Source of the DNA: an uncultured virus (IMG/VR IMGVR_UViG_3300023174_000108)
Taxonomy: Duplodnaviria; Heunggongvirae; Uroviricota; Caudoviricetes
IMG/VR virus record: IMGVR_UViG_3300023174_000108
Direction: 5' to 3' (one strand)
Length of the DNA stretch: 33,124 nucleotides
This document shows, in pieces, positions 471 to 33,124 of the stretch. How positions within the stretch are numbered: the stretch's first letter is position 1; each line of letters begins with the position of its first letter. The position numbers and the translations under genes were made by a program. The notes beneath the pieces were generated by a model. That model was not told the origin of the DNA. It did not search any database and worked only from the letters and a program-made list of their open reading frames with translations.

Positions 471-2192
471 TTATTTTTCGTAGCCTTCTGGAACTCTCCT
501 TTGTGGTAGTTGGGTTCCATAAGCTTGTGTCACTAAGTTGGAGCGTAGGGCTTGTTCTCCCATTTGCGCTGCTATTGTTGCGTCATCAATGACTGGAGGT
601 AGAACTGATTGAGGAACCCCAGCTTCAGGGCTTCCGCCGCCAACTGGCTGAGCTGGAGCCCCTCCAGGGCCTAGCTGGGCAGATTGCATGCCAGTTAGCA
701 TCATGATGTCATTTTCAATTTGAGTCTGTACAAGCTTAAGTGCGCCGTCTGACTTAGCGTCTTCAATAAGCTCTTGACGAATCTCTGTTAGCTTCTCTGC
801 TGGGAATTCTTCACCTAGTGCGCGAAGGGCACCTTCCTTAGACTCAAGGCCTAAAGATAGCTTGCTCTGGATTTCATTAAGAGCAATCAATTTATCTAGT
901 GGTAGAGGCTGTGGGAAGTGTACATAGTTTTGAAAAGTAATTGGGTCATTAGGGTCTAGCTGCGCAGCTTGCCCTGGCTTTAACGGGGTAGTGCTGGCGT
1001 TAGGGTCCCAAATAAAAGTCTCTGGCTCTTTAATAGCAAGAGAGATTAGGATAAGCTCATTAACGCGCTCTAGACCATGCGCGTACTGAATAATCTTCTG
1101 ATGGTAACGGTTCATCAAAGGCTGGAACTGAATAGATAGAGCAACGCCTGATGTATTAGAAATAGGCTGTGCCTGACCAAGTGCGGTTTCAGGAACACCA
1201 ATCATTTCGTGCATAGACTTCTTGAGCATAGCCAAGAATTCCATAGCGCCCTTAAGACCTTGTGAACCGCCCTCTAGGTTTTCTACCTTTGCATCCTTAG
1301 GTAGCCCGCCCCAAACTTTGTTAGCGCCTTTTTCTAACTGAGACGCCTTAGCGCCGATAATAACCGTAACTGGCGCTGCGTGGTAGTTAACGATGTCCGC
1401 GATATCCGTAGCGGTTTCATTATATGCACGGTTAATGTTAATAATATCATTGCAATCTGATAGACCCCAAGGAGAACCAGAAATACGAACGTTTGGAATA
1501 TGTACAACAGGGATAGTGCCAAGCGGATTAGGGCGCGAGTCAATAAGTTCATCGTTGATGTACTCCTCAATAATGTCGTCTGTCAAGATTTCTGTGTAAG
1601 TAAATACTTGACGTGTTCCTTCTAGAGAAGTTCCCCAGAATCTGTACTTGAGCTTAAATCGAATAAGTCGCTCTCTATCATGCGGGTGAAACTCTGGAAA
1701 AGCGAATGAAGAGTTAAGAGGGAGAATGCGAACACGACCAGGATGCTGGCGACCAGACGGGTCAACCCATGCTTCTTCATATGCCACCTTAATAAAGCAG
1801 TCTCCAGATACGGAGCCCTGCTGACCAATTTCCCACAATACTGTGGCTTTGTTGTTATCTATTTCCCATACTCGTTCAAGCAGGTCTGGGACAATAGCCT
1901 CCGTTAACTTTGCTGAACGAAAGTTAACGCCCTTACCAAAAGTAAAGTTAATTAAGAAGTCTGTGAATGCTCTGTAGTAATTGAGCATAATCTGCGCTTC
2001 GCCAGTTTGACGGCGGTATGAATAGTGGTGACCTAAATACATAGCCCAGTTAAGGGAATAGCGATTTAGGCGTGGGCCGTGTACTTCAAACTCTTCATCC
2101 GCTAGTTCTACTAAACCTAGTGGGGATATGGAGATTGTTAAATCAGAGGAAGCTGCGCGATAACTCGGAGGCGAGAAATCAATACCGCTCAC
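471..2192 (-). CDS. Phage portal protein (SPP1 gp6-like)
   Basis: 573 aa, downstream of terminase; portal-like motifs IPVVHIPN...PWGLSD, SNTSGVALSIQFQPL, GLESKEGALRALG. Confidence 0.85.
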   Translation of the reverse strand: MSGIDFSPPSYRAASSDLTISISPLGLVELADEEFEVHGPRLNRYSLNWAMYLGHHYSYRRQTGEAQIMLNYYRAFTDFLINFTFGKGVNFRSAKLTEAIVPDLLERVWEIDNNKATVLWEIGQQGSVSGDCFIKVAYEEAWVDPSGRQHPGRVRILPLNSSFAFPEFHPHDRERLIRFKLKYRFWGTSLEGTRQVFTYTEILTDDIIEEYINDELIDSRPNPLGTIPVVHIPNVRISGSPWGLSDCNDIININRAYNETATDIADIVNYHAAPVTVIIGAKASQLEKGANKVWGGLPKDAKVENLEGGSQGLKGAMEFLAMLKKSMHEMIGVPETALGQAQPISNTSGVALSIQFQPLMNRYHQKIIQYAHGLERVNELILISLAIKEPETFIWDPNASTTPLKPGQAAQLDPNDPITFQNYVHFPQPLPLDKLIALNEIQSKLSLGLESKEGALRALGEEFPAEKLTEIRQELIEDAKSDGALKLVQTQIENDIMMLTGMQSAQLGPGGAPAQPVGGGSPEAGVPQSVLPPVIDDATIAAQMGEQALRSNLVTQAYGTQLPQRRVPEGYEK

Positions 2193-3099: not shown

Positions 3100-4671
3100 C
3101 TATCTGTAGAAGGGTGAACTAGACACCTCTACAGAAGGCATAGTTAAATCCATAGTTAAAGCGCAAGCAATAGCCAAAGAGTCCGCATAGTCGTCGTGGG
3201 CATGGGCCTCTTCTGGGGCATGGGCAAGAAAGTTAGGACCAGTGAACTTTGTCTCTAGGTCAGTCATCTGTTGATAGAAACGTTTCCAGGTACGTAGACG
3301 TCGTGTCTTTGCATGTGCGGGCCAACCAACCATACGACGGTCAATTAAAGCTTTAAGGTGCTTCCAACGCTTTGACTGCTCTGGCTGGCTACTGCCAATA
3401 GAGTGAACTTCAGACTTAGGTAGAAGTAACTTAAGTCTTTGCGCAACAGCATCACCTACACCGTTTGCGTCCACACCTACTGCAATTACATCATAGCTGG
3501 ATAGGAATTGAACAATTTGAAAGTATTGGTCTTCCCAATCATCACCTTGAATCTCTAACCAATTTAAAACTCTATGGTCAAAGTAACCAAACTCATCAGG
3601 TCTATCCCAGTCTACCCAGACGACCGTGACGACCGTCGAGTCCATTTTCCTCGCGGGGTCGACCCCGACCACAACTGGAGTACGATGCCAAGCTTTGACC
3701 ACTTCTTGGGAAGTGTCTCCGAGCTCGTCCATGATTGTGGATGTGACGAACATGCCTCTCTCCAGCAACCATTTGCATGAGTACGACATTTGGAACTCAT
3801 CAGAGTCCTCCCCAATACGTAACATTTCTTTTTTAATAAACTTACCGTAGTTAACATTGTACTTAGCTACGTCTCGCCAGTCCCATTCAAAATGGTTTTG
3901 CCTAGACTTTGCAGATGTGCTACGTCTCTTATTTAACTGAATAGAGCGATAGAAGTTGTTTTTGTGTGTAGTAGGGGTGCCAGTCTTAACCATAGTTCCT
4001 GAGTAGTACGCAAGCATAGGTGAAATAGATTTAGATACCACAAAGTCATCTGCTTCCTGGCATTCATCAATAACAATAAGGTGGAAAGACTTAGACTCAA
4101 TCTTTGCACGAGGGTTAGCAGTCATCATCATAAGGCTACTGCCAGAGTTCTTTAATTTAATCTGTCGAGTAACGCCAGGAACTTTACCTAGACTGTCATC
4201 AATCTCAGGGTCTCCCAAGATTTCTAGTGCGCGCTCTGAAGTAAGTCTATTTACAGTACGGCCAAACAGGGTCTCTACCTGACCTTCAACTGGGGCAAAC
4301 ATACCAATCCAAATGCCTTCTTTAAATTTACCTAATAGGTCTGGGTACATTTTGGCTAATCTGGGGAGTAGAACCATAAGCGTAGCTACAGTATTAGCAA
4401 TAGTTTCAGATTTACCTGACTGACGTGCGGCAAGTGCTGTAATTTCTTCACCATCATTAATGATTACAGACTCAATAACTCTACGCGCTAAAGGCATTTG
4501 ATAAGGGTGTAACTCGTGTCCTACAAGCGCCGTTTGGAATTGAATACAGCGGTCCACTATCTTTTTTACAAACTCTTTAGAGAGCTCATCTAGCTCTTCA
4601 ATTTCTTCTTCGGGCGCAAGGTCCTCTTCCTCATCTGGGAAGAACTCTTCGTCATCTAATGCTGTATCCAT
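3100..4671 (-). CDS. terL: Terminase large subunit
   Basis: Walker A ARQSGKS, Walker B LIVIDE, coupling motif TGTP, RNase H-like nuclease motifs VGVDPA and HDDYADS. Confidence 0.93.
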   Translation of the reverse strand: MDTALDDEEFFPDEEEDLAPEEEIEELDELSKEFVKKIVDRCIQFQTALVGHELHPYQMPLARRVIESVIINDGEEITALAARQSGKSETIANTVATLMVLLPRLAKMYPDLLGKFKEGIWIGMFAPVEGQVETLFGRTVNRLTSERALEILGDPEIDDSLGKVPGVTRQIKLKNSGSSLMMMTANPRAKIESKSFHLIVIDECQEADDFVVSKSISPMLAYYSGTMVKTGTPTTHKNNFYRSIQLNKRRSTSAKSRQNHFEWDWRDVAKYNVNYGKFIKKEMLRIGEDSDEFQMSYSCKWLLERGMFVTSTIMDELGDTSQEVVKAWHRTPVVVGVDPARKMDSTVVTVVWVDWDRPDEFGYFDHRVLNWLEIQGDDWEDQYFQIVQFLSSYDVIAVGVDANGVGDAVAQRLKLLLPKSEVHSIGSSQPEQSKRWKHLKALIDRRMVGWPAHAKTRRLRTWKRFYQQMTDLETKFTGPNFLAHAPEEAHAHDDYADSLAIACALTMDLTMPSVEVSSSPFYR

Positions 4672-9393: not shown

Positions 9394-10821
9394 TCAGTAC
9401 ACAATCTTTGTTGATGGGTAGAGAGACTGCCACTCTTCAACATCTTTCATGTCGTTCAGTAATGGTTGCCCTTTTATATTTAAACTAGTATTTAAAAGCA
9501 CAGGGATTCCTGAGTACTCGTGCCACTGTTTTAGAAGACTATAAAGACCAGGGTGTTGAGTGCCGTTTACAGTTTGAACCCTAGAAGTCCCATCTACATG
9601 TACAACCGAAGGTATCTCAGAGGGCCGCTTACAAGTAACAGCAAATTGCATATATGGCGAGGGCCTGGCTAAATCAAACCACTCATGAGCAAGCTCTTCT
9701 AACACTACTGGCGCAAAAGGTCTAAAGAGCTCTCTCTTTTTTATTAGGTTAACCTTGTCCTTGATATCAGCCGCTCTTGGGTCAGCTAAGATGCTTCTGT
9801 TACCTAAAGCGCGGGGGCCATACTCAGCTCTACCGCTAGCTACAGCTACTATTTGATTTACCTTTAACTCTTCTAGAAGAGCGGATACTGGGTACTCCCC
9901 AGGTATATCTGCACCTAGGTAAGGGCCTTTCCAATCTATATGCTTTCCATACAATGCCGCCGCTGCGCCCAAGCTACTGCCTGAGTCACCAGGGTTTGGC
10001 ATAATCCAAACGTCATCAAATATAGAGTATAGGGCTGTGTTAGCTGAGCAGTTCAAAGCGCAACCGCCCATAAATACAAGATTGCGTTGGCCAGTAAGTT
10101 TTTTAGCGTATTCCATAAACTCAGTAAGCCTAGTTTCATACACCTGTTGTACAGAGGCAGCTATATCAAATACATAATTTGGGTTTATTTTTTCACCCCA
10201 ATCAACAATGCCTCTATGAAAGTTATATTTTTGTGAAGTTATGGACGGAAAATACTTAGAGACCTTGTCTAAGTACCTAGTTGGATTTCCATATCCAGCC
10301 ATACCCATCATTATGTACTCTTCTTCATTTGGCTTTAAACCAAGCAACTGAGTGAAGGCTGAGTAAAAAAGCCCAAAGCTGAACGGATAATTCTGCGATT
10401 TAACTAATGATATGGATGTTCCAGAAGCACTCCATATAGTTGACGTGTTCCATTCCCCAATTGAATCTAAAACAACAATAACAGCGTTTGTAAAATGGCT
10501 GGTAAAGTACCCAGCACAAGCATGAGAATAGTGATGCTTGAAGGTGTAAGTCTTAACCCCTTCTAATTTATACTTTGGCCGCCACTCCCCCAACCCACCT
10601 TTTAATTTTAATCTAGAAGCCTTTAATAAGGGCTTCTCATAATAAGCTACTGCATCAGGCTTACCGTACTTAAGAGCATCATCTATAAGCTCTTGATTAA
10701 CATACCAATCATTTTTAGTTTTTGAATACCGTTCGGAATGGGCTGCAAATACTATTTGACCGTCATCAATTAAAGATACGGACGCGTCATGAGAAGCCTC
10801 ATTTATACCCAGTATTAACAT
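9394..10821 (-). CDS. Carbamoyltransferase (NodU/CmcH/TobZ family)
   Basis: HDAS, HHYSHA, DSIGE, GGCALN, EYGPRALGNRSILADPR, RELFRPFAP, SRVQTV, LLNTSLN. Confidence 0.93.
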   Translation of the reverse strand: MLILGINEASHDASVSLIDDGQIVFAAHSERYSKTKNDWYVNQELIDDALKYGKPDAVAYYEKPLLKASRLKLKGGLGEWRPKYKLEGVKTYTFKHHYSHACAGYFTSHFTNAVIVVLDSIGEWNTSTIWSASGTSISLVKSQNYPFSFGLFYSAFTQLLGLKPNEEEYIMMGMAGYGNPTRYLDKVSKYFPSITSQKYNFHRGIVDWGEKINPNYVFDIAASVQQVYETRLTEFMEYAKKLTGQRNLVFMGGCALNCSANTALYSIFDDVWIMPNPGDSGSSLGAAAALYGKHIDWKGPYLGADIPGEYPVSALLEELKVNQIVAVASGRAEYGPRALGNRSILADPRAADIKDKVNLIKKRELFRPFAPVVLEELAHEWFDLARPSPYMQFAVTCKRPSEIPSVVHVDGTSRVQTVNGTQHPGLYSLLKQWHEYSGIPVLLNTSLNIKGQPLLNDMKDVEEWQSLYPSTKIVY

Positions 10822-14454: not shown

Positions 14455-15197
14455 TACTCAAGTATAGGCTTTGTAGGAACAGGCCTATAGGCTGAATCAA
14501 GATGCTTAGAGGACGAGTCCTCTAGGCTCTCAAATCCTTTTTTATACAAGTGGGGCCATTTACCTGGGTACTTAGCGTAAAACTCCTGTCGGTCACTGTT
14601 GTATAAACTGGTTTTTTCTAACTGCTCTTCAGTTGCTGAGGTTACAGAAATAATAGTTGACTCTAGTAACCCTATTGGATAGTTCACTAACCGCATAAAA
14701 GGGGTTCCTTTTTTAAAGGTAACTACCTTGTTAGGGGTGGTAAGTTTCCAGCAAAACTGTAAAGAGTTAAAGTTGTACCAGTCTGACCTAATTAACGCTG
14801 ACATAGGCTTAGCTCCATCAACAAAATAGTTTGATGGTCCGTCTAATAATATGTAATGGTCCTTATCTGTTTCCACAAAAGCGTTTAAGTTAAAGCTTAA
14901 AGTGGCGTTAGCTGTACCAGTGTCGACAAGGGCTGAGCCGCTAGGCAGCAATCGGCCATCAAGTATGGTGACATGGCTAGACTCAGTATCGCTAATACCA
15001 TCCCAAATGACTTCTACGTCTTGTGGAAGAATAAAATCCCAACCATGAAGGTTGGCCGTAGTCATGGGCTGACAGTGGTACCCGTGCGAGTTAAGAGTAC
15101 TGTCTAAGTACTCTCTTTTAACTTTAGCCTGTTCTACAACAGGATAGTCACAGGAAGAGTCAAGCGCCCATATTTTTATATATGGGCTCTCACTCAT
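14454..15197 (-). CDS. DUF6065-like protein (dUTPase-like fold)
   Basis: YHCQPMTTANLHGW, GPSNY, IRSDW, WKLT, FKKGTPF. Confidence 0.6.
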   Translation of the reverse strand: MSESPYIKIWALDSSCDYPVVEQAKVKREYLDSTLNSHGYHCQPMTTANLHGWDFILPQDVEVIWDGISDTESSHVTILDGRLLPSGSALVDTGTANATLSFNLNAFVETDKDHYILLDGPSNYFVDGAKPMSALIRSDWYNFNSLQFCWKLTTPNKVVTFKKGTPFMRLVNYPIGLLESTIISVTSATEEQLEKTSLYNSDRQEFYAKYPGKWPHLYKKGFESLEDSSSKHLDSAYRPVPTKPILE

Positions 15198-15928
15198 ACC
15201 TTCGGAACCCCAAACTGCTCTCTGTACTCTTTTGGATAAAACGTTGGAGAGTCGTTACGGTGAGCAAACTCATTACGGTCACTCATAATAACTAGTGAGT
15301 ACTTAATGCCGTCATCAGTCACTGGCTCTGAAGCATGAGCATATACATAAGACGATGGGAAGATGACTAAGTCTCCAGCCTTAGGCTTATAACTTAAATT
15401 AAATTTAGGGAAGGTTAACTCTCCACCAGTATAATTGTCATTTGGGTACCCGACTAGTGAGGTAGTGCAGCGGTAAGGTTCACCATCATCTGTATGAACT
15501 TTAAAGTACTCACCTGAGCCGTACCGAACAATATTAATGCACTCATAATAATTAATTCCAGATAAGAAGTTGTTAGGGCAGTAATGAGAAATACATGTCT
15601 TTACTGAGTCCATAATCTCTTTGTGCAGTTTAAATAGGTCTTCTGAGTACTCATCACGCTGACCCAGAGTGTCTTCTCGAACCTTAAAGTCTTTACACTT
15701 TCTATGCGCTTCGTCAGTGTGGCCAAAATTAAGGCCAGCAGTCTGCCAAGCAAATCGTGTTCCAGGGATGGCTAAGCTAGCCTCAACTCGATTTACAATA
15801 TCCATTTCAGGAGTAAAAGCATTATGGTAGACGTAAATGCCTGTTCCAATTTCGTCAAAATCAACAGACCATTCTTTATTATCCCAAACTGTTGTAGCTA
15901 TCATTTTATTCACCCTTTCCTGGTGCAT
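15194..15928 (-). CDS. 2OG-Fe(II) oxygenase, prolyl-4-hydroxylase-like
   Basis: YFKVHTD (HxD), YTGGELTFP, PKAGDLVIFPS, distal H (YAHAS), KYS. Confidence 0.88.
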   Translation of the reverse strand: MHQERVNKMIATTVWDNKEWSVDFDEIGTGIYVYHNAFTPEMDIVNRVEASLAIPGTRFAWQTAGLNFGHTDEAHRKCKDFKVREDTLGQRDEYSEDLFKLHKEIMDSVKTCISHYCPNNFLSGINYYECINIVRYGSGEYFKVHTDDGEPYRCTTSLVGYPNDNYTGGELTFPKFNLSYKPKAGDLVIFPSSYVYAHASEPVTDDGIKYSLVIMSDRNEFAHRNDSPTFYPKEYREQFGVPKV

Positions 15929-27006: not shown

Positions 27007-27231
27007 TTACTGTAATACACTCTTTTGATAATCATTGACTGACTTAATCAACTGTGAGATAAGGATATCTCTTTTATCTGGGTGCTTCTCATCAAAGTGC
27101 TTCATCCAGTCTTTTGCCGAAAATTTACCTGAAGCACACCCATTATTGACATCATCCCAGCAAGTCTTAGCAAAGCCTGAGTCTGCACCGAGGTCTTCTA
27201 CCTGAGACCATAACCAGGTTGTATATCTCAT
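27007..27231 (-). CDS. YozE/SAM-like small protein
   Basis: MRYTTWL..Q...GFAK...DD resembles YozE-like N-termini. Confidence 0.45.
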   Translation of the reverse strand: MRYTTWLWSQVEDLGADSGFAKTCWDDVNNGCASGKFSAKDWMKHFDEKHPDKRDILISQLIKSVNDYQKSVLQ

Positions 27232-27821
27232 TTAATAGAGCTGCTGGTCTTCTTTGATGAAGAGCTCTCAGTAGATTGAGCTGTCTTTGCCTCTACTGGG
27301 AATCTTTTGTCTGACCCTTGGCTACGCTGATTGGTAGAGGCCCCGCTAAATGAGTCGGCATATGTAACAGGGATTAACATATTTTTATCAATCTTTGCCG
27401 CGGTTGCTATTCTGTGATGCCCTCCAAATACCTCTGGACGCATATCAAAGCTACTGAGGTCCTTAGTTTGTAAAGTTACTGGGTTCTGAACGCCCTCACG
27501 CTTAATTGAGTTTGCTAGTGTATCTGGGTGGCTTTCAGAGAAAGCTTCGTTTCTAGAGTTACCAGAGAGCCCTTTGCGGCCTTCACTTGCTTTACGGCTC
27601 CAAGTATCCTCTGCATCTTCTCCGCTGCGCATATCACCCTTCAACGGGTTGTAATCAGTCATAATTTCTGCTGGCGTCTTATACATAGTTAATTGCTCAA
27701 CAGGTGGTTTTGGTGATGGACGCTTAGCTCTAACTGGGGGAGTATAGGCGTTACCTGATGTTACATAACGAGCTGGCATTCCAGGTAGCGCTTCTTGAAT
27801 GAATGTTTCGCTACGACTCAT
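27228..27821 (-). CDS. ParB/Srx-like domain protein
   Basis: LANSIKREGVQNPVTL...EVFGGHHRIATA; start moved to ATG 27821. Confidence 0.75.
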   Translation of the reverse strand: MSRSETFIQEALPGMPARYVTSGNAYTPPVRAKRPSPKPPVEQLTMYKTPAEIMTDYNPLKGDMRSGEDAEDTWSRKASEGRKGLSGNSRNEAFSESHPDTLANSIKREGVQNPVTLQTKDLSSFDMRPEVFGGHHRIATAAKIDKNMLIPVTYADSFSGASTNQRSQGSDKRFPVEAKTAQSTESSSSKKTSSSIK

Positions 27822-27945
27822 GGCGCTTCCTAGCATTAGCGCAGTTGTAGCAAATCTTTTCAACTAGGTCGATAACACCTAGCACAAATGCGTCTACGCC
27901 TGAATAGACGATGCCGTCCTTGGTTTCGCAATCTACGCATGACAT
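27811..27945 (-). CDS. 44-aa CxxC...CxxC zinc-ribbon peptide (not in track)
   Basis: MSCVDCETKDGIVYSGVDAFVLGVIDLVEKICYNCANARKRHES. Confidence 0.6.
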   Translation of the reverse strand: MSCVDCETKDGIVYSGVDAFVLGVIDLVEKICYNCANARKRHES

Positions 27946-28359: not shown

Positions 28360-28470
28360 ATCATGAGGTCACCTATGGGGCTTCCCTGGTGGCCTATGTA
28401 GATTTGTCGACATTTAACCCTGGGGGGGTCTGAGTGGGGAGCCTGAGCCGAGAGCAGCAGGCTCAAAACA

Positions 28471-28510
28471 ATTCATCTCCCGTTCACCTTGTGTTTGCCT
28501 ATTGTTACTA
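28471..28510 (+). promoter_or_regulatory. 11-bp-phased (G/A)TTCAYC boxes
   Basis: ATTCATC 28471, GTTCACC 28482, degenerate GTTTGCC 28493 and GTTACTA 28504. Confidence 0.6.
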
Positions 28511-28573
28511 TTGAGGTGTAGCGTACGCAATACTTAGCCACAAGGGCTAGGGATTAGTAGTTAGGACTACATC

Positions 28574-29360: not shown

Positions 29361-29390
29361 AAAGGGCAAGGGCTTCCCCCCTTGCCCTTT
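29361..29390 (+). terminator. Terminator hairpin
   Basis: AAAGGGCAAGGG-cttccc-CCCTTGCCCTTT, 12-bp stem. Confidence 0.7.
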
Positions 29391-29411: not shown

Positions 29412-29523
29412 ATGTTTGTGGCGGGCTATGTATATGTATGGCTAATAATTTAATGAATTAAATTATTTAATTATTAGCTTGCTAATAATTAAGCCATACA
29501 TATACATAGCCCGCCACAAACAT
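29412..29523. repeat. T-shaped palindrome, copy 1
   Basis: Perfect 32-bp outer inverted repeat enclosing two abutting 24-nt hairpins (29444-29467, 29468-29491). Confidence 0.95.
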
Positions 29524-29591
29524 TTCACCACCTGGTACCTGAGAGTTTCCTGAGAGATACTGTTCACCTATTGTTCACCTACTGTTCATCT
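29523..29591 (+). promoter_or_regulatory. 11-bp-phased GTTCAYC boxes
   Basis: GTTCACC 29562 and 29573, GTTCATC 29584; a degenerate phased set at 29523/29534/29545. Confidence 0.7.
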
Positions 29592-29690
29592 GAGAGTAGT
29601 CCTATCGTGTAGCGCGATAAGGCTGGGCGAGAGTATGCTGGCCCTATCGCGTAGCGCCCGCTATGCGTAATTTATGAAAGGTTAGGTACC

Positions 29691-30695
29691 ATGGCTCACA
29701 ATCTCGAGCAATGGGGCGAGAGCACCGCTTTCGCCTTGCGTGGCGAGCCTGCTTGGCATGGATTGGCTAACGTGTTATTCGATGAGGATACACACGTGGA
29801 CACACGCACAATGTTAGATAGCGCAATGCTATCTAATTGGAATGTGCGCTTGGAGCCTGTCTCATTCCCTGCTGGTTATCGTGTTGTATCACCCGCGTAT
29901 TCTGTAGTACGCACCAATCCAGCAGACGCTGGCAATGATGTGCTCGCTGTAGTAGGCGACCGTTACCAAGTATTCCAGAATGAGGATTTATTCTCATTCG
30001 GGGATAACATCCTCGATGGCGGGGGACGCTGGGAGTCTGCTGGCTCAATCAAGCAAGGCCGACAGGTTTTCGGCTCAATCAAGATTGACCGCGAGTTAGT
30101 ACTAGACCCTAACGGCATCGCGGATAAGACCGAGTCTTATCTGCTCATCACTACATCACACGACGGCTCAAGCGCCATTCAAGCAATGGTTACCCCTGTG
30201 CGCGTCGTATGCCAAAACACCTTGAACATGGCGCTCAATGGCGCCAAGCAATCTTTCAAGGTGCGCCACACTGCCAAGCAGGCAGACCGCGTAGCCGAGG
30301 CGCGTCGCGTACTAGGCTTATCTTTCGCACACATGGATGAATTCGACGCCATGGCGCAAGACCTATTCAAGACAGAATTCACCAATAAGCAATTCGATGC
30401 GCTAGTTGAGGCAATCTATCCACAGCCTGATGTCGCATCCAAGGCTGCTTTCACCAAGCACACAGATAAAGTCGACTTTATCAAGGCGCTTTATCTCAAC
30501 AGCCCTACACAACAGGGCATCACTGGCACAGCATGGGGAGCGCTTAACGCGCTCACCGAGCACCTCGACTATTTCCGCGCTGGCAAGGCGGGACAGACCG
30601 AGGGCTTAATCTCAGCAGCGAGCGGTTTCGAGGCTGGCATTAACTCACAGAAGGCGCGCATCCTCTCAACAGTGCGCGACATGGCAACAGCCTAG
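29691..30695 (+). CDS. DUF932 / TIGR03299-type phage-plasmid protein
   Basis: MAHNLE, PAWHGL, VGDRYQVFQNED, ESAGSIKQGRQVF, YLLITTSHDGS, TPVRVVCQNTL, RHT, GTAWGALNALTE. Confidence 0.88.
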   Translation: MAHNLEQWGESTAFALRGEPAWHGLANVLFDEDTHVDTRTMLDSAMLSNWNVRLEPVSFPAGYRVVSPAYSVVRTNPADAGNDVLAVVGDRYQVFQNEDLFSFGDNILDGGGRWESAGSIKQGRQVFGSIKIDRELVLDPNGIADKTESYLLITTSHDGSSAIQAMVTPVRVVCQNTLNMALNGAKQSFKVRHTAKQADRVAEARRVLGLSFAHMDEFDAMAQDLFKTEFTNKQFDALVEAIYPQPDVASKAAFTKHTDKVDFIKALYLNSPTQQGITGTAWGALNALTEHLDYFRAGKAGQTEGLISAASGFEAGINSQKARILSTVRDMATA

Positions 30696-30710
30696 GCTTA
30701 GCCCAAGCAA

Positions 30711-30738
30711 TAGCCCCCAGCCAATCGGCTGGGGGCTA
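30711..30738 (+). terminator. Terminator hairpin
   Basis: TAGCCCCCAGCC-aatc-GGCTGGGGGCTA followed by ATTGTTTGTT. Confidence 0.75.
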
Positions 30739-30741
30739 ATT

Positions 30742-30855
30742 GTTTGTTGCGGGTAGGCTTATTGGTTATTGGCTAAAAAAATAGTGAGCTATTTTTTTAA
30801 ATTATTAACTTGTTAATAATTTAGCCAATAACCAATAAGCCTACCCGCCACAAAC
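30742..30855. repeat. T-shaped palindrome, copy 2
   Basis: 33-bp outer inverted repeat (1 mismatch) enclosing two abutting 24-nt hairpins (30775-30798, 30799-30822). Confidence 0.95.
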
Positions 30856-30856
30856 T

Positions 30857-30886
30857 ATTCACCGTGTGTTCATCTGTTGTTCATCT
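30857..30886 (+). promoter_or_regulatory. 11-bp-phased (G/A)TTCAYC boxes
   Basis: ATTCACC 30857, GTTCATC 30868, GTTCATC 30879. Confidence 0.7.
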
Positions 30887-30955
30887 AAAACGGGAAGGAA
30901 GAGAAGAGAAAGGGTGTTTAATAAGCACACAGGTCAAGAGATAGGAGTTCCAACA

Positions 30956-31168
30956 ATGGCAACTATGACCCGTCAACACTTCAAGGTGATTGCAGACGTT
31001 CTAAACGACCGTCTCACAACCGCGAAGCAAGCAGACCAAGAGTACCCCGAGGCTATTACGGCTGAGAGCGTACTTGAAGGGGTTATTGAGCAGTTTGCGA
31101 TAGTGCTACGCAGCACCAATCCGAACTTCAATGAGAGCAAGTTCCTTCAAGCATGCGGAAGGGGGTGA
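30956..31168 (+). CDS. Small phage early protein
   Basis: MATMTRQHFKVIA...TNPNFNESKFLQACG; AGGAG RBS; start corrected from the track. Confidence 0.75.
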   Translation: MATMTRQHFKVIADVLNDRLTTAKQADQEYPEAITAESVLEGVIEQFAIVLRSTNPNFNESKFLQACGRG

Positions 31169-31171
31169 CAC

Positions 31172-31471
31172 ATGGCACACACAGATTTGGACGCATTAAA
31201 AGAACGTCTACGCAACGCTAACACTACGCCTCGCAAAGTGCGGACGTACCGCAAGCGCGCTAAACTTAGCGAGTCTCGCAAAAATGAACTTATGATTAAA
31301 GTACGCGAGTCCGCTGATTTCCTAGAGGAAATGAAGTTAGAACTAGACGCACTCACATACCAAGCCTACAAGCAAGGCTTGACATACGAAGACCTAGCAG
31401 ACGCGTTAAAGATTAACGTATCTGCTCTCTCCAAGCGCATTAGCCGCTTGAAGGCCTCACTTACTAAATAG
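31172..31471 (+). CDS. Helix-turn-helix DNA-binding protein
   Basis: AYKQGLTYEDLADALKINVSALSKRI. Confidence 0.75.
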   Translation: MAHTDLDALKERLRNANTTPRKVRTYRKRAKLSESRKNELMIKVRESADFLEEMKLELDALTYQAYKQGLTYEDLADALKINVSALSKRISRLKASLTK

Positions 31472-31537
31472 GATTACGGGGAGCCTATCTCTCTCCGTAT
31501 AGGGTAACCGTGCCACGTAATAGCCGTCATTCCCTAC

Positions 31538-31571
31538 GATTAGCCCTCTGTCGGTTGGCAGAGGGCTAATC
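31538..31571 (+). terminator. Terminator hairpin
   Basis: GATTAGCCCTCTGTC-ggtt-GGCAGAGGGCTAATC, 15-bp stem with one G-U pair. Confidence 0.7.
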
Positions 31572-31584
31572 TTATGCCCAAAGA

Positions 31585-31677
31585 GTTTGTGGCGGGCTTA
31601 CTTGCTAAAAAACTAACTTGTTTAGTTTTTTAAATTATTACTAAAGTAATAATTTAGCAAGTAAGCCCGCAACAAAC
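31585..31677. repeat. T-shaped palindrome, copy 3
   Basis: 22-bp outer inverted repeat (1 mismatch) enclosing abutting hairpins 31607-31631 and 31632-31655. Confidence 0.95.
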
Positions 31678-31678
31678 A

Positions 31679-31729
31679 ATTCACCCTCTGTTCATCTACT
31701 GTTCACCTTGCATTAAGAGATTGTTCACC
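31679..31729 (+). promoter_or_regulatory. 11-bp-phased (G/A)TTCAYC boxes
   Basis: Boxes at 31679, 31690, 31701 and 31723 (offsets 11, 11, 22). Confidence 0.7.
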
Positions 31730-31796
31730 AACCGCCCGATAGAGTACGCAGTACAAGGTTCTCCATTAGGGGAGAGCCGAGAGAGAAAGACACGAC

Positions 31797-32300
31797 ATGG
31801 AATACACGCAAGACGCGCTGTTTTACACAGCCGAGGAAATGGTAGCGAAGGTTACCGAAGCCCTCAACCGCTCATACGAGGACGCAGACCTACGCGTTCA
31901 GCGCGCTAAGGATAACCTTAACGCTTACATCTCAGAGTCTCTAGTAGAAACACTAAAGACCTACACCGAAAGCGGAGACTTAGATAAGACTACCGCTCAG
32001 GACATCTATGACTCTATGAAGTCTAAGCACCTATGGTCAGACGCTAGTCTTACCACCAACCTATACACCGTATCCGTCACCCTAGACGGTAGCCTTATCG
32101 CAGAAGTATCAGACATTGAGGCACAAGACGAGGACGAGGCTTGCGATACCGTCCGTGATGATTTCTTCCTATACAACGCTAACGTTAGCCTTACCTTCCG
32201 CGACGGTCAAGGTAATGAGTACGAGCATGAAGTAGAAGGCGTAGAACACGAAATGTCCGACTACCAAGACTCCTTGGATTTCTCAGCCGAGGAACAATAA
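31797..32300 (+). CDS. Highly acidic hypothetical protein
   Basis: 167 aa; about 40 D/E versus about 11 K/R by manual count. Confidence 0.75.
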   Translation: MEYTQDALFYTAEEMVAKVTEALNRSYEDADLRVQRAKDNLNAYISESLVETLKTYTESGDLDKTTAQDIYDSMKSKHLWSDASLTTNLYTVSVTLDGSLIAEVSDIEAQDEDEACDTVRDDFFLYNANVSLTFRDGQGNEYEHEVEGVEHEMSDYQDSLDFSAEEQ

Positions 32301-32408
32301 GGTTATCGGGGTCGGCAGGGCTATTCGTGTAACCCCTAACCCCCTAACAACGGCTAGTCCTAGTTGCCGATAAGGACTAGCCACCAACCAACTAACAGAA
32401 AGAAGCAC

Positions 32409-32954
32409 ATGAGTACCAACCGAGAACTATTTGACACCATAGTCGCAGAAGTAGAGCGCGATTATGTCCATGTATGGGAACACGCTAACGGCGAAGTGCC
32501 CGTACAAGATGAGGAAGGCTTTGTCCAGTACGAGGTACTAGACGGACTACTCCTAGATACACCAACCAACGCGTTCAGTAATTTTACCGTTCGTGACGCA
32601 GTAATGGTCAAGGCTAATCAGGACGATAAGTTTGCCTTTGTCCTCTGCAATAAGATTATCCACCATGCCAAGAAGGCTGACGAAGCAGGTAATTTCGTTC
32701 AGGCTGACCTTGACGCGCTCGCTACCGCTATCCACATACAGGCTATGTGGGAACAGACAGAGCGAGCAATAGCCTTAGCCTCAGTAGCAGAACAATGCGC
32801 TCAGGAGAACAACCTTGAAATGCCTACGATTATGGACGCTACCAAGCGCGTAATCATGATGCAGACCGTTATGGGCTTGGACATAGCAGAACTACGGGTT
32901 CGTATGACCAAAGACCTTGCCAAAGTAGCCTTCACGGCACTAGACTCCGAATAA
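32409..32954 (+). CDS. Acidic helical hypothetical protein
   Basis: MSTNRELFDTIVAE...; start moved to ATG 32409. Confidence 0.7.
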   Translation: MSTNRELFDTIVAEVERDYVHVWEHANGEVPVQDEEGFVQYEVLDGLLLDTPTNAFSNFTVRDAVMVKANQDDKFAFVLCNKIIHHAKKADEAGNFVQADLDALATAIHIQAMWEQTERAIALASVAEQCAQENNLEMPTIMDATKRVIMMQTVMGLDIAELRVRMTKDLAKVAFTALDSE

Positions 32955-32985: not shown

Positions 32986-33019
32986 AACCTTATCGCTCGC
33001 CCGCGAGCGCGAGCGATTT

Positions 33020-33124
33020 GTTTGTGGCGAACCCACCCACCCACCCAAAGCATATATTGCTATCGCAATATAAATTGAATATGCAATAGCATATTCAATT
33101 TGCGGAATACCTAATCTTCGATTA
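33020..33124. repeat. Fourth, variant palindromic element (truncated by window end)
   Basis: Begins GTTTGTGGCG; two abutting AT-rich hairpins (33053-33072, 33073-33100) closed by GCA/TGC; the right outer arm is not in the window. Confidence 0.65.

Follow-up and report, generated by a model that had tools for sequence, protein, structure and literature searches.

The 33,124-nt stretch of DNA from an uncultured virus of the Caudoviricetes (IMG/VR record IMGVR_UViG_3300023174_000108), in the following called the window, is a 33-kb part of a tailed-phage genome with a G+C content of 44.6% and carries four palindromic elements, P1 to P4, in a cluster of small genes. These elements appear to be DNA-level palindromes in a lytic phage infecting freshwater bacteria, where they would mark the joints of an array of small gene cassettes, each with its own terminator. 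They have the potential to form extensive secondary structures, they belong to a family of elements in related phages in which the pairing is of the Watson-Crick type only, and the cassette regions of these phages carry footprints of recombination. The pairing is quite probably maintained at the level of the DNA, and we tentatively suggest that the folded elements serve as joints for recombination.

Predicted folds of four palindromic elements

29412-29523, no strand assigned: P1, a 32-bp outer stem with two 10-bp AT-rich arms; inner part 48 nt
30742-30855, no strand assigned: P2, 33 stem positions with a T.C mismatch at position 7; inner part 48 nt
31585-31677, no strand assigned: P3, 22 stem positions with a G.A mismatch at position 7; inner part 49 nt
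33019-33124, no strand assigned: left part of P4 (the 'long form'), with GTTTGTGGCG, a CCCACCCACCCACCC tract and two hairpins; truncated by the end of the window

P1 to P3 were folded as single-stranded DNA on both strands and compared with 200 shuffled sequences each. P1 folds with -48.5 kcal/mol, corresponding to z-scores of -15.1 for the plus and -17.0 for the minus strand, and the z-scores for P2 (-14.2 and -14.5) and P3 (-10.5 and -10.1) are similarly low; in each case none of the 200 shuffles folded as well as the element. Both strands fold equally well, as perfect palindromes should. All three elements adopt a T shape, in which the two 10-bp AT-rich arms leave the outer stem with no unpaired base at the junction, and they share the GCT/AGC junction as well as AATTATTA in arm 2, while their stems contain no G-T pair. 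With z-scores of -10 to -17 this confirms an earlier note made from the sequence alone, which had described the T-shaped folds with their stem and inner lengths and closed junctions, the lack of G-T pairs, and the conserved junction and arm-2 sequence in all three copies. The 2-nt loops that it also described depend on the folding model, as ViennaRNA forbids shorter loops and draws loops of 4-5 nt. The pattern formed by the element ends is beyond chance, having no match in 100 shuffles of the sequence, and the exact 12-mers in the window number six and correspond to the six arms.

The window stretch or close variants of it were found in 20 run rows from eight studies, comprising lake, freshwater, plankton and wastewater metagenomes. 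Contigs from four other studies bridge P1 in four of four runs, P2 in two of four and P3 in three of four. As these contigs bridge the elements independently, P1 to P3 are not assembly fold-backs, the artefact that the earlier note had named as a possible refutation. The strains of the other studies differ from the window in P1 by a 2-nt deletion at 29431 and by a C>A exchange at 29515, which produces a position-7 mismatch, and furthermore by a 12-nt deletion immediately 3' of P1.

Next to the three elements reported earlier, P4 had been overlooked. Its complete form is present in a relative (L140:3879-4012), where it spans 134 nt, ends with ...CCAACACAAAC and combines three internal hairpins and a CCCACCC-type tract with no more than about 8-10 terminal pairs. 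In the 12 regions in which families of open reading frames (ORFs) and elements were mapped, the long form is the last element and always precedes an AAA-ATPase gene; a VWA gene follows it in the six regions reaching far enough. At 33031-33047 of the window, four CCC runs spaced by single A's represent a G-quadruplex motif on the minus strand (GGGT repeats). CCCACCC-type tracts recur in the long forms of relatives (L070:8574-8689, L067:7879-8019, L140:3879-4012), the remainder of which varies.

Maintenance of pairing across the family

The closest relative in IMG/VR as judged by the DUF932 protein (60% identity) is a contig of 81.7 kb, G001, in which two T-shaped palindromes with the ends GTTTGTGTTGGG bracket the DUF932 gene. 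The exact end pattern of the window had no match in IMG/VR; freeing two end positions resulted in 51 loci with 49 distinct sequences. Five of these (L012, L039, L058, L061, L062) were removed due to a poor fold and missing joint context, leaving 44 members from 14 contigs or, including merged duplicate loci, from about 18 uncultured phage contigs according to our own tally. The scan of related phages proposed in the earlier note was productive once the ends were loosened. Complete genomes of about 95-98 kb contain two to seven elements each, located within one region of 3-6 kb, and the DUF932 proteins of the family phages are 52-60% identical. A metagenome scan resulted in four further loci. 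Three of them, L139 to L141, share about 78-81% identity with the window and carry orthologues of P1 to P4 (those of P1 at L139:172-277 and L140:223-327); the fourth, L138, was rejected as an unrelated palindrome.

To quantify conservation, pairs were counted inward from both ends of the 44 members, the stems being ungapped from the ends and therefore allowing direct counts. The 12 outermost pairs are conserved, with no variation at pairs 1-6 and 10-12 and slight variation at pairs 7-9, which are always paired save for the two mismatches in the window. At pairs 13-19 all four Watson-Crick types occur, 306 of 308 cells are paired and none is G-T. When the partners were dealt among the sequences, the paired fraction amounted to 0.42 (maximum 0.56 in 2000 trials), and it was 0.21-0.29 when the partners were slid by 1-3 positions. 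With 25 distinct 7-mers at pairs 13-19 among the 44 members, the sequence of this part of the stem is free to change. The perfect stems comprise 18-36 bp and enclose interiors of 34-57 nt with a mean of 65% A+T. AGCT is present in 28 of 44 interiors compared to 5.5 expected, an excess to be read with the non-independence of orthologues and the bias of small palindromes towards this motif in mind. The conserved ends with differing but paired stems, described earlier for three copies, are hereby extended to 44 members.

The T shape was found in 15 of 16 canonical elements of the window, L139 to L141, G001 and G002, and in this lineage it is kept even where both arms were replaced. Elsewhere, i.e., in nine other regions, only 4 of 35 elements form a T shape, counting two hairpins with up to 14 unpaired bases, and the remaining ones contain one hairpin and an unpaired stretch of about 18 nt. 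The T shape is therefore lineage-specific and does not define the family, so that the family of T shapes proposed earlier holds for the lineage of the window and is rarely borne out outside it. What persists family-wide is the self-pairing of each strand, with 12 fixed terminal pairs followed by a free, matched stem.

Comparisons of closely related elements illustrate how they change. In 13 clusters sharing the same interior, 31 changed pair types and no unpaired positions were counted, mirrored indels included; these 31 changes are not independent events, several being mirrored indels or the replacement of a whole stem. As an example, the P2 orthologue L139:1466-1576 shows a 1-nt deletion and a G>T exchange, each mirrored on the opposite arm, and P1 of L140 shows mirrored changes at pairs 8-9 together with a mirrored 1-nt deletion. 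P3 of L139 carries about 10 extra pairs on both arms, which resemble the stem of P2, suggesting that the central block of one element may have been inserted into the outer stem of a different one. L140 and L141 retain the T shape of P3, both arms of which are replaced. The P2 joint is occupied by a plain 61-nt hairpin with the other end type in L140 and by a 120-nt T shape with different stems in L141, so that wholly different elements occupy the same joint in phages that are about 80% alike. Moreover, one interior type is found in reverse-complement orientation in the element across the DUF932 gene in the same genomes. Such reverse-complement interiors in G007 (L130:3194-3282 and 4462-4552), and also in G008, result in an inverted pair bracketing the DUF932 gene.

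Mirrored indels, block exchange and inversion of the interior fit a DNA-level copying between the arms, as it might be deduced from these alignments. Template switching between the arms of inverted repeats is reported to homogenise the arms and to invert the spacer (PMC8604942; PMC8794818). Arm-to-arm copying alone would keep stems free of G-T pairs; the absence of G-T pairs therefore shows pairing at the DNA level and leaves the level of the function unsettled. The earlier note had taken the covariation as a sign of selection on structure: the pairing stands, whereas mirrored indels and block exchange allow arm copying as an alternative.

A blastn search of the region against 50,697 phage records only returned weak DUF932/DUF945 matches to Streptomyces phages covering at most 7% of the query; likewise, the region of a relative gave only weak gene-fragment matches and no similar element in cultured phages. 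In bacterial genomes, 55 pattern matches were read by eye; all are in other contexts and none is accompanied by terminators and repeat modules. They were rejected as unrelated repeats, several being host repeat families confined to a single metagenome-assembled genome (MAG) (Myxococcales, Cytophagales, one Pseudomonadota MAG). Cytophagales MAGs (L080, L103, L110, L123) contain GC-rich palindromic repeats of their own, which start with GTTTGTGCNGGGC and have stems up to 26 bp; their likeness to the phage ends may be a search artefact, and the contexts differ. The 17 Rfam matches, 16 to microRNA (miRNA) precursor families and one to the small RNA STnc490, are all below the gathering scores and were discarded as generic long hairpins. 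The literature searched, supplements aside, contains no description of this element, and the family of palindromic cassette joints in freshwater phages thus seems to be undescribed so far.

Cassette joints, breakpoints and flanking modules

At a joint, an upstream terminator is followed by the palindrome, a phased short-repeat module, and a leader with the gene. Every joint of the array carries one element in the 12 mapped regions, and the DUF932 gene is bracketed by elements in all 12. The order and the content of the cassettes differ between phages. Family F6 precedes the DUF932 gene in three phages and follows it in four, the helix-turn-helix gene F11 precedes that gene in G001 but follows it in the window and in G002, and the F18 and F2 cassettes are present in some phages and absent in others. 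In two phages that are 86-90% alike, one has an extra cassette together with one extra element; here the homology breaks off where the left arm of one element ends (4482) and restarts at the last 12 nt of the next element (5246). By these sequence comparisons, recombination was shown to occur in and around the elements. Shuffling of cassettes by recombination is the only one of the four roles proposed in the earlier note for which order, content and breakpoints provide comparative support. A coupling of the element type to a neighbouring gene was considered and dropped, as neither side predicts the type: e9 keeps its downstream gene and e6 its upstream gene.

In the window, the portal, terminase, endolysin and auxiliary genes are encoded on the minus strand up to 28324, and small genes follow on the plus strand from 28574 on; P1 to P3 are located in this small-gene cluster. 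The large terminase is 54% identical to that of Streptomyces phage BRock and 41% to that of Bacillus phage BCD7. The features are as follows:

471-2192, minus strand: portal gene
3100-4671, minus strand: large terminase gene
28470-28512, plus strand: palindrome-free phased repeats heading the plus-strand cluster, no same-strand gene upstream
29361-29390, plus strand: terminator-like hairpin 5' of P1, 12-bp perfect arms
29524-29592, plus strand: module after P1, TTCACC, CCTGAGAG twice, TGTTCAYC three times, 11-nt period
29691-30695, plus strand: cassette gene for the DUF932 protein between P1 and P2 (phrog_1221, 1.6e-94; PF06067, 1e-55)
30711-30738, plus strand: intrinsic terminator 5' of P2, 12 pairs, tail ATTGTTTGTT
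30856-30887, plus strand: module after P2, TATTCACC, then TGTTCATC twice, 11-nt period
30956-31471, plus strand: P2-P3 cassette, a small ORF and a 99-aa helix-turn-helix protein (31172-31471)
31535-31574, plus strand: terminator-like hairpin 5' of P3, 16-nt arms, 94% complementary
31678-31730, plus strand: module after P3, AATTCACC, then TGTTCAYC two to three times
31797-32954, plus strand: P3-P4 cassette, two ORFs without family match (families F2 and F14)
32992-33017, plus strand: terminator-like hairpin 5' of P4, 9 pairs, tail TTGTTTGTGG

At P2 and P4 the T-rich tail of the terminator overlaps the first bases of the palindrome. Directly 3' of each copy of P1 to P3, wATTCACC is followed by two to three TGTTCAYC units with an 11-nt period, which Tandem Repeats Finder reports only after P1 (29558-29588, 2.8 copies). 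Judged by gene order, the cassette genes are presumably early genes. Sigma-70-like promoters were found three times in the region of the window compared to 4.9 expected, a count based on a consensus that may not be that of the host.

The flanking module differs between lineages. In 43 distinct joints of relatives, CC-TGTGGATAA-CT is located 2-22 nt after the right arm and is followed by TGAACA-like or GTTAT units. TGTGGATAA matches the DnaA box at nine of nine positions, and the extended string CCTGTGGATAAC is also present in papers dealing with oriC and DnaA. The box string is nearly confined to the array region, with six of seven copies in the complete genome G005 and four of four in the complete genome G003. 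There is no perfect DnaA box beside the elements of the window and none anywhere in G001; both instead have CCTGAGAG and TGTTCAYC units, TGTTCAY being the reverse complement of the RTGAACA of the other lineage. TGTTCAYC, CCTGAGAG, GTTAT and RTGAACA are all phased at 11 nt, lineage-specific and found in either orientation. By their sequence the phased units look like arrays of regulator binding sites, with some likeness to weak DnaA boxes and to the direct repeats of response regulators. Lineages without the DnaA box have fully paired T interiors with 7-11 unpaired nt and those with the box 12-29 unpaired nt; by nearest-neighbour energies, extrusion is estimated to cost 34-50 kcal/mol in T shapes versus 53-68 kcal/mol in others (11 examples). 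This hints that a bound protein may help opening in the box lineages, a pattern drawn from about two lineages.

Several further observations concern these flanks. The right-arm 10-mer (CAACACAAAC) also occurs solo, i.e., without a left arm, about 55-60 nt 5' of the DnaA-box-like site of first units (L130:1652-1661, L129:12951-12960, L131:11999-12008). Outside the arrays there are two to four exact solo 10-mers per genome, some of which are degenerate right arms before first modules. A perfect GTTTCACGTGAAAC palindrome, which we take to be the core of the bacterial parS consensus, adjoins elements in G005 and G002 (L046:1594-1607, L068:6711-6724, L070:1443-1456) and is absent from the window; at 27228-27863 the window encodes a weakly ParB-like protein (phrog_3264, E 8e-4). 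Auxiliary genes among the virion genes encode a Nol-like carbamoyltransferase and a 2OG-Fe(II) oxygenase in the window (9394-10821 and 15194-15928) and an adenosine-phosphosulfate (APS)-kinase-like protein in G001 (L137:7339-8091).

G001 encodes proteins of a contractile tail (sheath, tube and baseplate), PolA, a DnaB-like helicase, a primase, an IstB/DnaC-like ATPase, RecA and an SNF2 helicase. No RNA polymerase was found among its 78 ORFs of at least 90 aa (E <= 1e-4); transcription of the early genes therefore presumably depends on the host polymerase. A recognised replication initiator was also not found among the G001 proteins.

Possible roles and related systems

For the recombination-joint role, the following mechanism might be envisaged. 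Single strands of the elements would fold into hairpins, or negative supercoiling would extrude cruciforms, and the folded elements would act as recombination joints, with the conserved ends providing short homology and the folded palindromes being prone to breakage. Cassettes, elements or central blocks would therefore exchange between co-infecting relatives with the arms staying matched. Several points weigh against this mechanism. Pairing is not absolute: L139, L140 and four of four runs retain a 2-nt indel in P1 that is not mirrored, and a mismatch is found at position 7 of P2, P3 and several orthologues, between which it switches the arm. Other phage pairs break about 40 nt 5' or about 34 nt 3' of an element, so that there is no fixed point; the variable positions therefore argue for a recombination-prone joint and not for one fixed crossover point. 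Any repeated joint sequence could yield such breakpoints with the palindrome as a passenger, and synteny is mostly retained, which indicates that exchange is rare. The 12 end pairs are kept despite a DUF932 identity of 52-60%, which suggests a protein reading their sequence, and the mechanism needs none. Moreover, no integrase, recombinase, resolvase, HUH enzyme or transposase was detected among the 78 G001 ORFs, and no recombinase, resolvase, HUH enzyme or transposase among 32 and 14 scanned ORFs of the partial-genome window. Finally, it is what we infer that the elements fold in vivo, that folding drives the exchanges and that the role was selected instead of arising as a side effect. Taken with these points, the recombination-joint role is possible and is put forward with reserve.

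The main rival to the recombination joint is regulation from a position upstream of the promoter. In such a cis-regulatory DNA structure, the palindrome upstream of a promoter module would extrude under negative supercoiling and change the promoter geometry or insulate the units from each other, and in a variant the adjoining DnaA box may let DnaA open the AT-rich interior. This is consistent with the element always lying between terminator and repeat module and only where an upstream unit on the same strand ends, the first module (28470-28512) having repeats and no palindrome. The box motif CC-TGTGGATAA-CT after the right arm in 43 joints, the less paired interiors and costlier extrusion (53-68 versus 34-50 kcal/mol) in the DnaA-box lineages and the solo right-arm 10-mer 5' of some first modules point in the same direction, and a cruciform upstream of a Vibrio promoter, attenuated by HlyU, is a reported precedent (bioRxiv 10.1101/2022.03.07.483294). 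However, stems and interiors turn over fully and one interior is inverted, leaving no fixed internal site, the distance of the downstream box varies from 2 to 22 nt, sigma-70-like promoters do not exceed chance (3 versus 4.9), and the DnaA-box match is missing from the elements of the window and from G001, its link to the interior being seen in about two lineages. A regulatory role is rather unlikely. A further rival is an RNA-level hairpin. A read-through transcript would form a duplex of 19-36 bp to be cut by RNase III, which would uncouple the downstream cassette and leave a protective 3' hairpin, analogous to the early RNase III sites of T7. The shortest perfect stems have 18-19 bp, which is close to the duplex length needed by RNase III; the element directly follows the terminators with the T tract entering its first bases, and the stem keeps its structure only and not its sequence. 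Nevertheless, none of the 308 variable stem cells is a G-T pair, which bears out the earlier claim of G-T-free stems beyond P1 to P3. With the elements folded as RNA, the sense fold is more stable than the antisense fold in 23 of 44 elements, less stable in 7 and equal in 14; the bias is due to the G+T-rich interiors, since shuffled interiors of equal composition reach -1.2 compared to the observed -1.6 kcal/mol (20 elements), only one cluster standing out. One interior is inverted relative to its paralogue, Rfam returned only sub-threshold generic hairpins (plant miRNA precursors), and the conserved ends would be left unexplained, making this explanation quite improbable.

The elements might also be by-products or selfish DNA, originating from inverted duplication or template switching where terminator and promoter meet or from MITE-like insertion (MITE, miniature inverted-repeat transposable element), with arm copying keeping them perfect and no role for the phage. 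Bacterial MITEs resemble them in size and in terminal repeats. Mirrored indels, block exchange and spacer inversion would be expected of template switching between the arms (PMC8604942; PMC8794818). In contrast, the elements are present at every joint of 12 regions at a DUF932 identity of 52-60%, copies in one genome are not near-identical (25 7-mers among 44 members), the flanks have no target duplication, 15 of 16 elements in the lineage of the window retain the T shape despite the replacement of arm sequences, and the bacterial genomes with their 55 matches only contribute unrelated repeats from different contexts; an origin as mere by-product is accordingly improbable. An origin-like function, in which the AT-rich palindrome would be an unwinding element next to a DnaA box and iteron-like repeats, opened by host DnaA before the DnaB-like helicase of the phage and its DnaC/IstB-like AAA+ ATPase, a possible helicase loader, take over, would fit the AT-rich interior (mean 65% A+T) adjoining CCTGTGGATAAC in relatives as well as the DnaB-like helicase, primase, IstB/DnaC-like ATPase and PolA of G001, which has no recognised initiator. 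It is very unlikely given three to seven copies within 5-6 kb, each bound to a cassette, the lack of a perfect DnaA box beside the elements of the window and in G001, and the orientation of the flanking repeats, which differs between lineages. By analogy to T5, where the first-injected region contains palindromes and DnaA boxes and an injection stop was proposed (bioRxiv 10.1101/866236), the elements might be pause signals during DNA entry or else decoys for host nucleases or sensors; as they are tied one-to-one to cassette joints and not to one position, this has hardly any probability.

The logic of folded DNA is reminiscent of the attC sites of integrons, which have a conserved base, a free but paired middle and a variable or branched tip, comprise about 60-140 nt, occur once per cassette and are characterised by the inverse core and core sites RYYYAAC...GTTRRRY and by extrahelical bases, which determine the choice of the strand. 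By analogy, the elements share the conserved base, the free paired middle, the variable tip and the occurrence of one site per cassette. An integron-like cassette system of phages, in which the folded palindromes would be structure-specific recombination sites for an enzyme of phage or host, could allow early genes, possibly for host takeover or anti-defence, to be captured, reordered and traded between co-infecting phages. However, the element ends, GTTTGTG...CACAAAC throughout the 44 members, depart from GTTRRRY at positions 4, 6 and 7, the stems are perfect over 18-36 bp without systematic extrahelical bases, and the position-7 mismatch switches the arm. In addition, no match to PF00589, the family of IntI-type tyrosine recombinases, was obtained for the 78 G001 ORFs or the scanned ORFs of the partial-genome window, the cassettes here have their own terminators and start modules, unlike the promoterless cassettes of integrons, and the breakpoints are not at a fixed position. 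Such a system has a low probability.

Other systems are more distant. The hairpin promoters of phage N4, read by its virion RNA polymerase, have a 5-7-bp stem and a 3-nt loop, whereas the elements have stems of 18-36 bp and interiors of 34-57 nt; hairpin promoters like those of N4, an analogy considered earlier, are not supported, as the stems are far too long and an RNA polymerase is lacking among the 78 G001 ORFs. The terminal repeat of adeno-associated virus (AAV) is a T-shaped three-way junction of nested palindromes with flip and flop orientations. The elements resemble it in forming a three-way junction of nested perfect palindromes with one interior in the opposite orientation, but differ from AAV and hairpin telomeres in being internal and intergenic in a double-stranded DNA phage of about 95 kb, with no Rep or HUH nickase found in G001. 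Unlike MITEs and repetitive extragenic palindromes (REP), copies differ in stem and interior, have no flank duplication and are accompanied by no transposase or HUH match in G001. As to T7-type RNase III hairpins, in which a structure selected on the transcribed strand is cut in the RNA, the stems here contain no G-U pairs and the stability bias is explained by composition. The first-step-transfer region of T5 has noncoding palindromes or inverted repeats of unproven function and perfect DnaA boxes among the first-expressed genes, to that extent similar to the array; however, the boxes of T5 are paired 3 bp apart within long-range inverted repeats, which have a fixed 52-bp spacer and lie in one untranslated part of the terminal repeat (bioRxiv 10.1101/866236), whereas here there is one palindrome per joint and a single box in relatives only, and no sequence similarity was seen.

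The closest published concept is the promoter-early stem-loop (PeSL) of T4-like phages, which mediates modular shuffling (Arbiol et al. 2010, PMC2839356; Comeau et al. 2014, PMC4122927) and for which cassette mini-circles were reported. Both systems have repeated composite motifs at the joints of small early genes with unknown functions in plastic regions, with an own terminator and start module for each gene, and in the phages compared here cassette indels, replacements and reordering have their breakpoints at the motifs. Terminator hairpins are present at four of four joints of the window, and sigma-70 matches number 3 versus 4.9 expected, where the promoter type of the host may differ. In contrast to the elements, the short stem-loop of PeSL is an RNA terminator with G-T pairs next to a sigma-70-like promoter (PMC2839356); here an extra perfect palindrome of 76-120 bp is present between the terminator and the start module, which has 12-bp conserved ends, is Watson-Crick-only and is not followed by a T tract.

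Compared to joints of the PeSL type, the new aspect is thus a long self-paired palindrome with fixed ends, whose stem and tips turn over without loss of pairing. This represents a clean natural case of conservation of structure at the DNA level, found in an abundant group of uncultured freshwater phages. If the elements tune promoters, they would be a rare case of cruciform-dependent control. If it is true that folding drives the exchange, they would provide a structure-based route for the traffic of cassettes in lytic phages.

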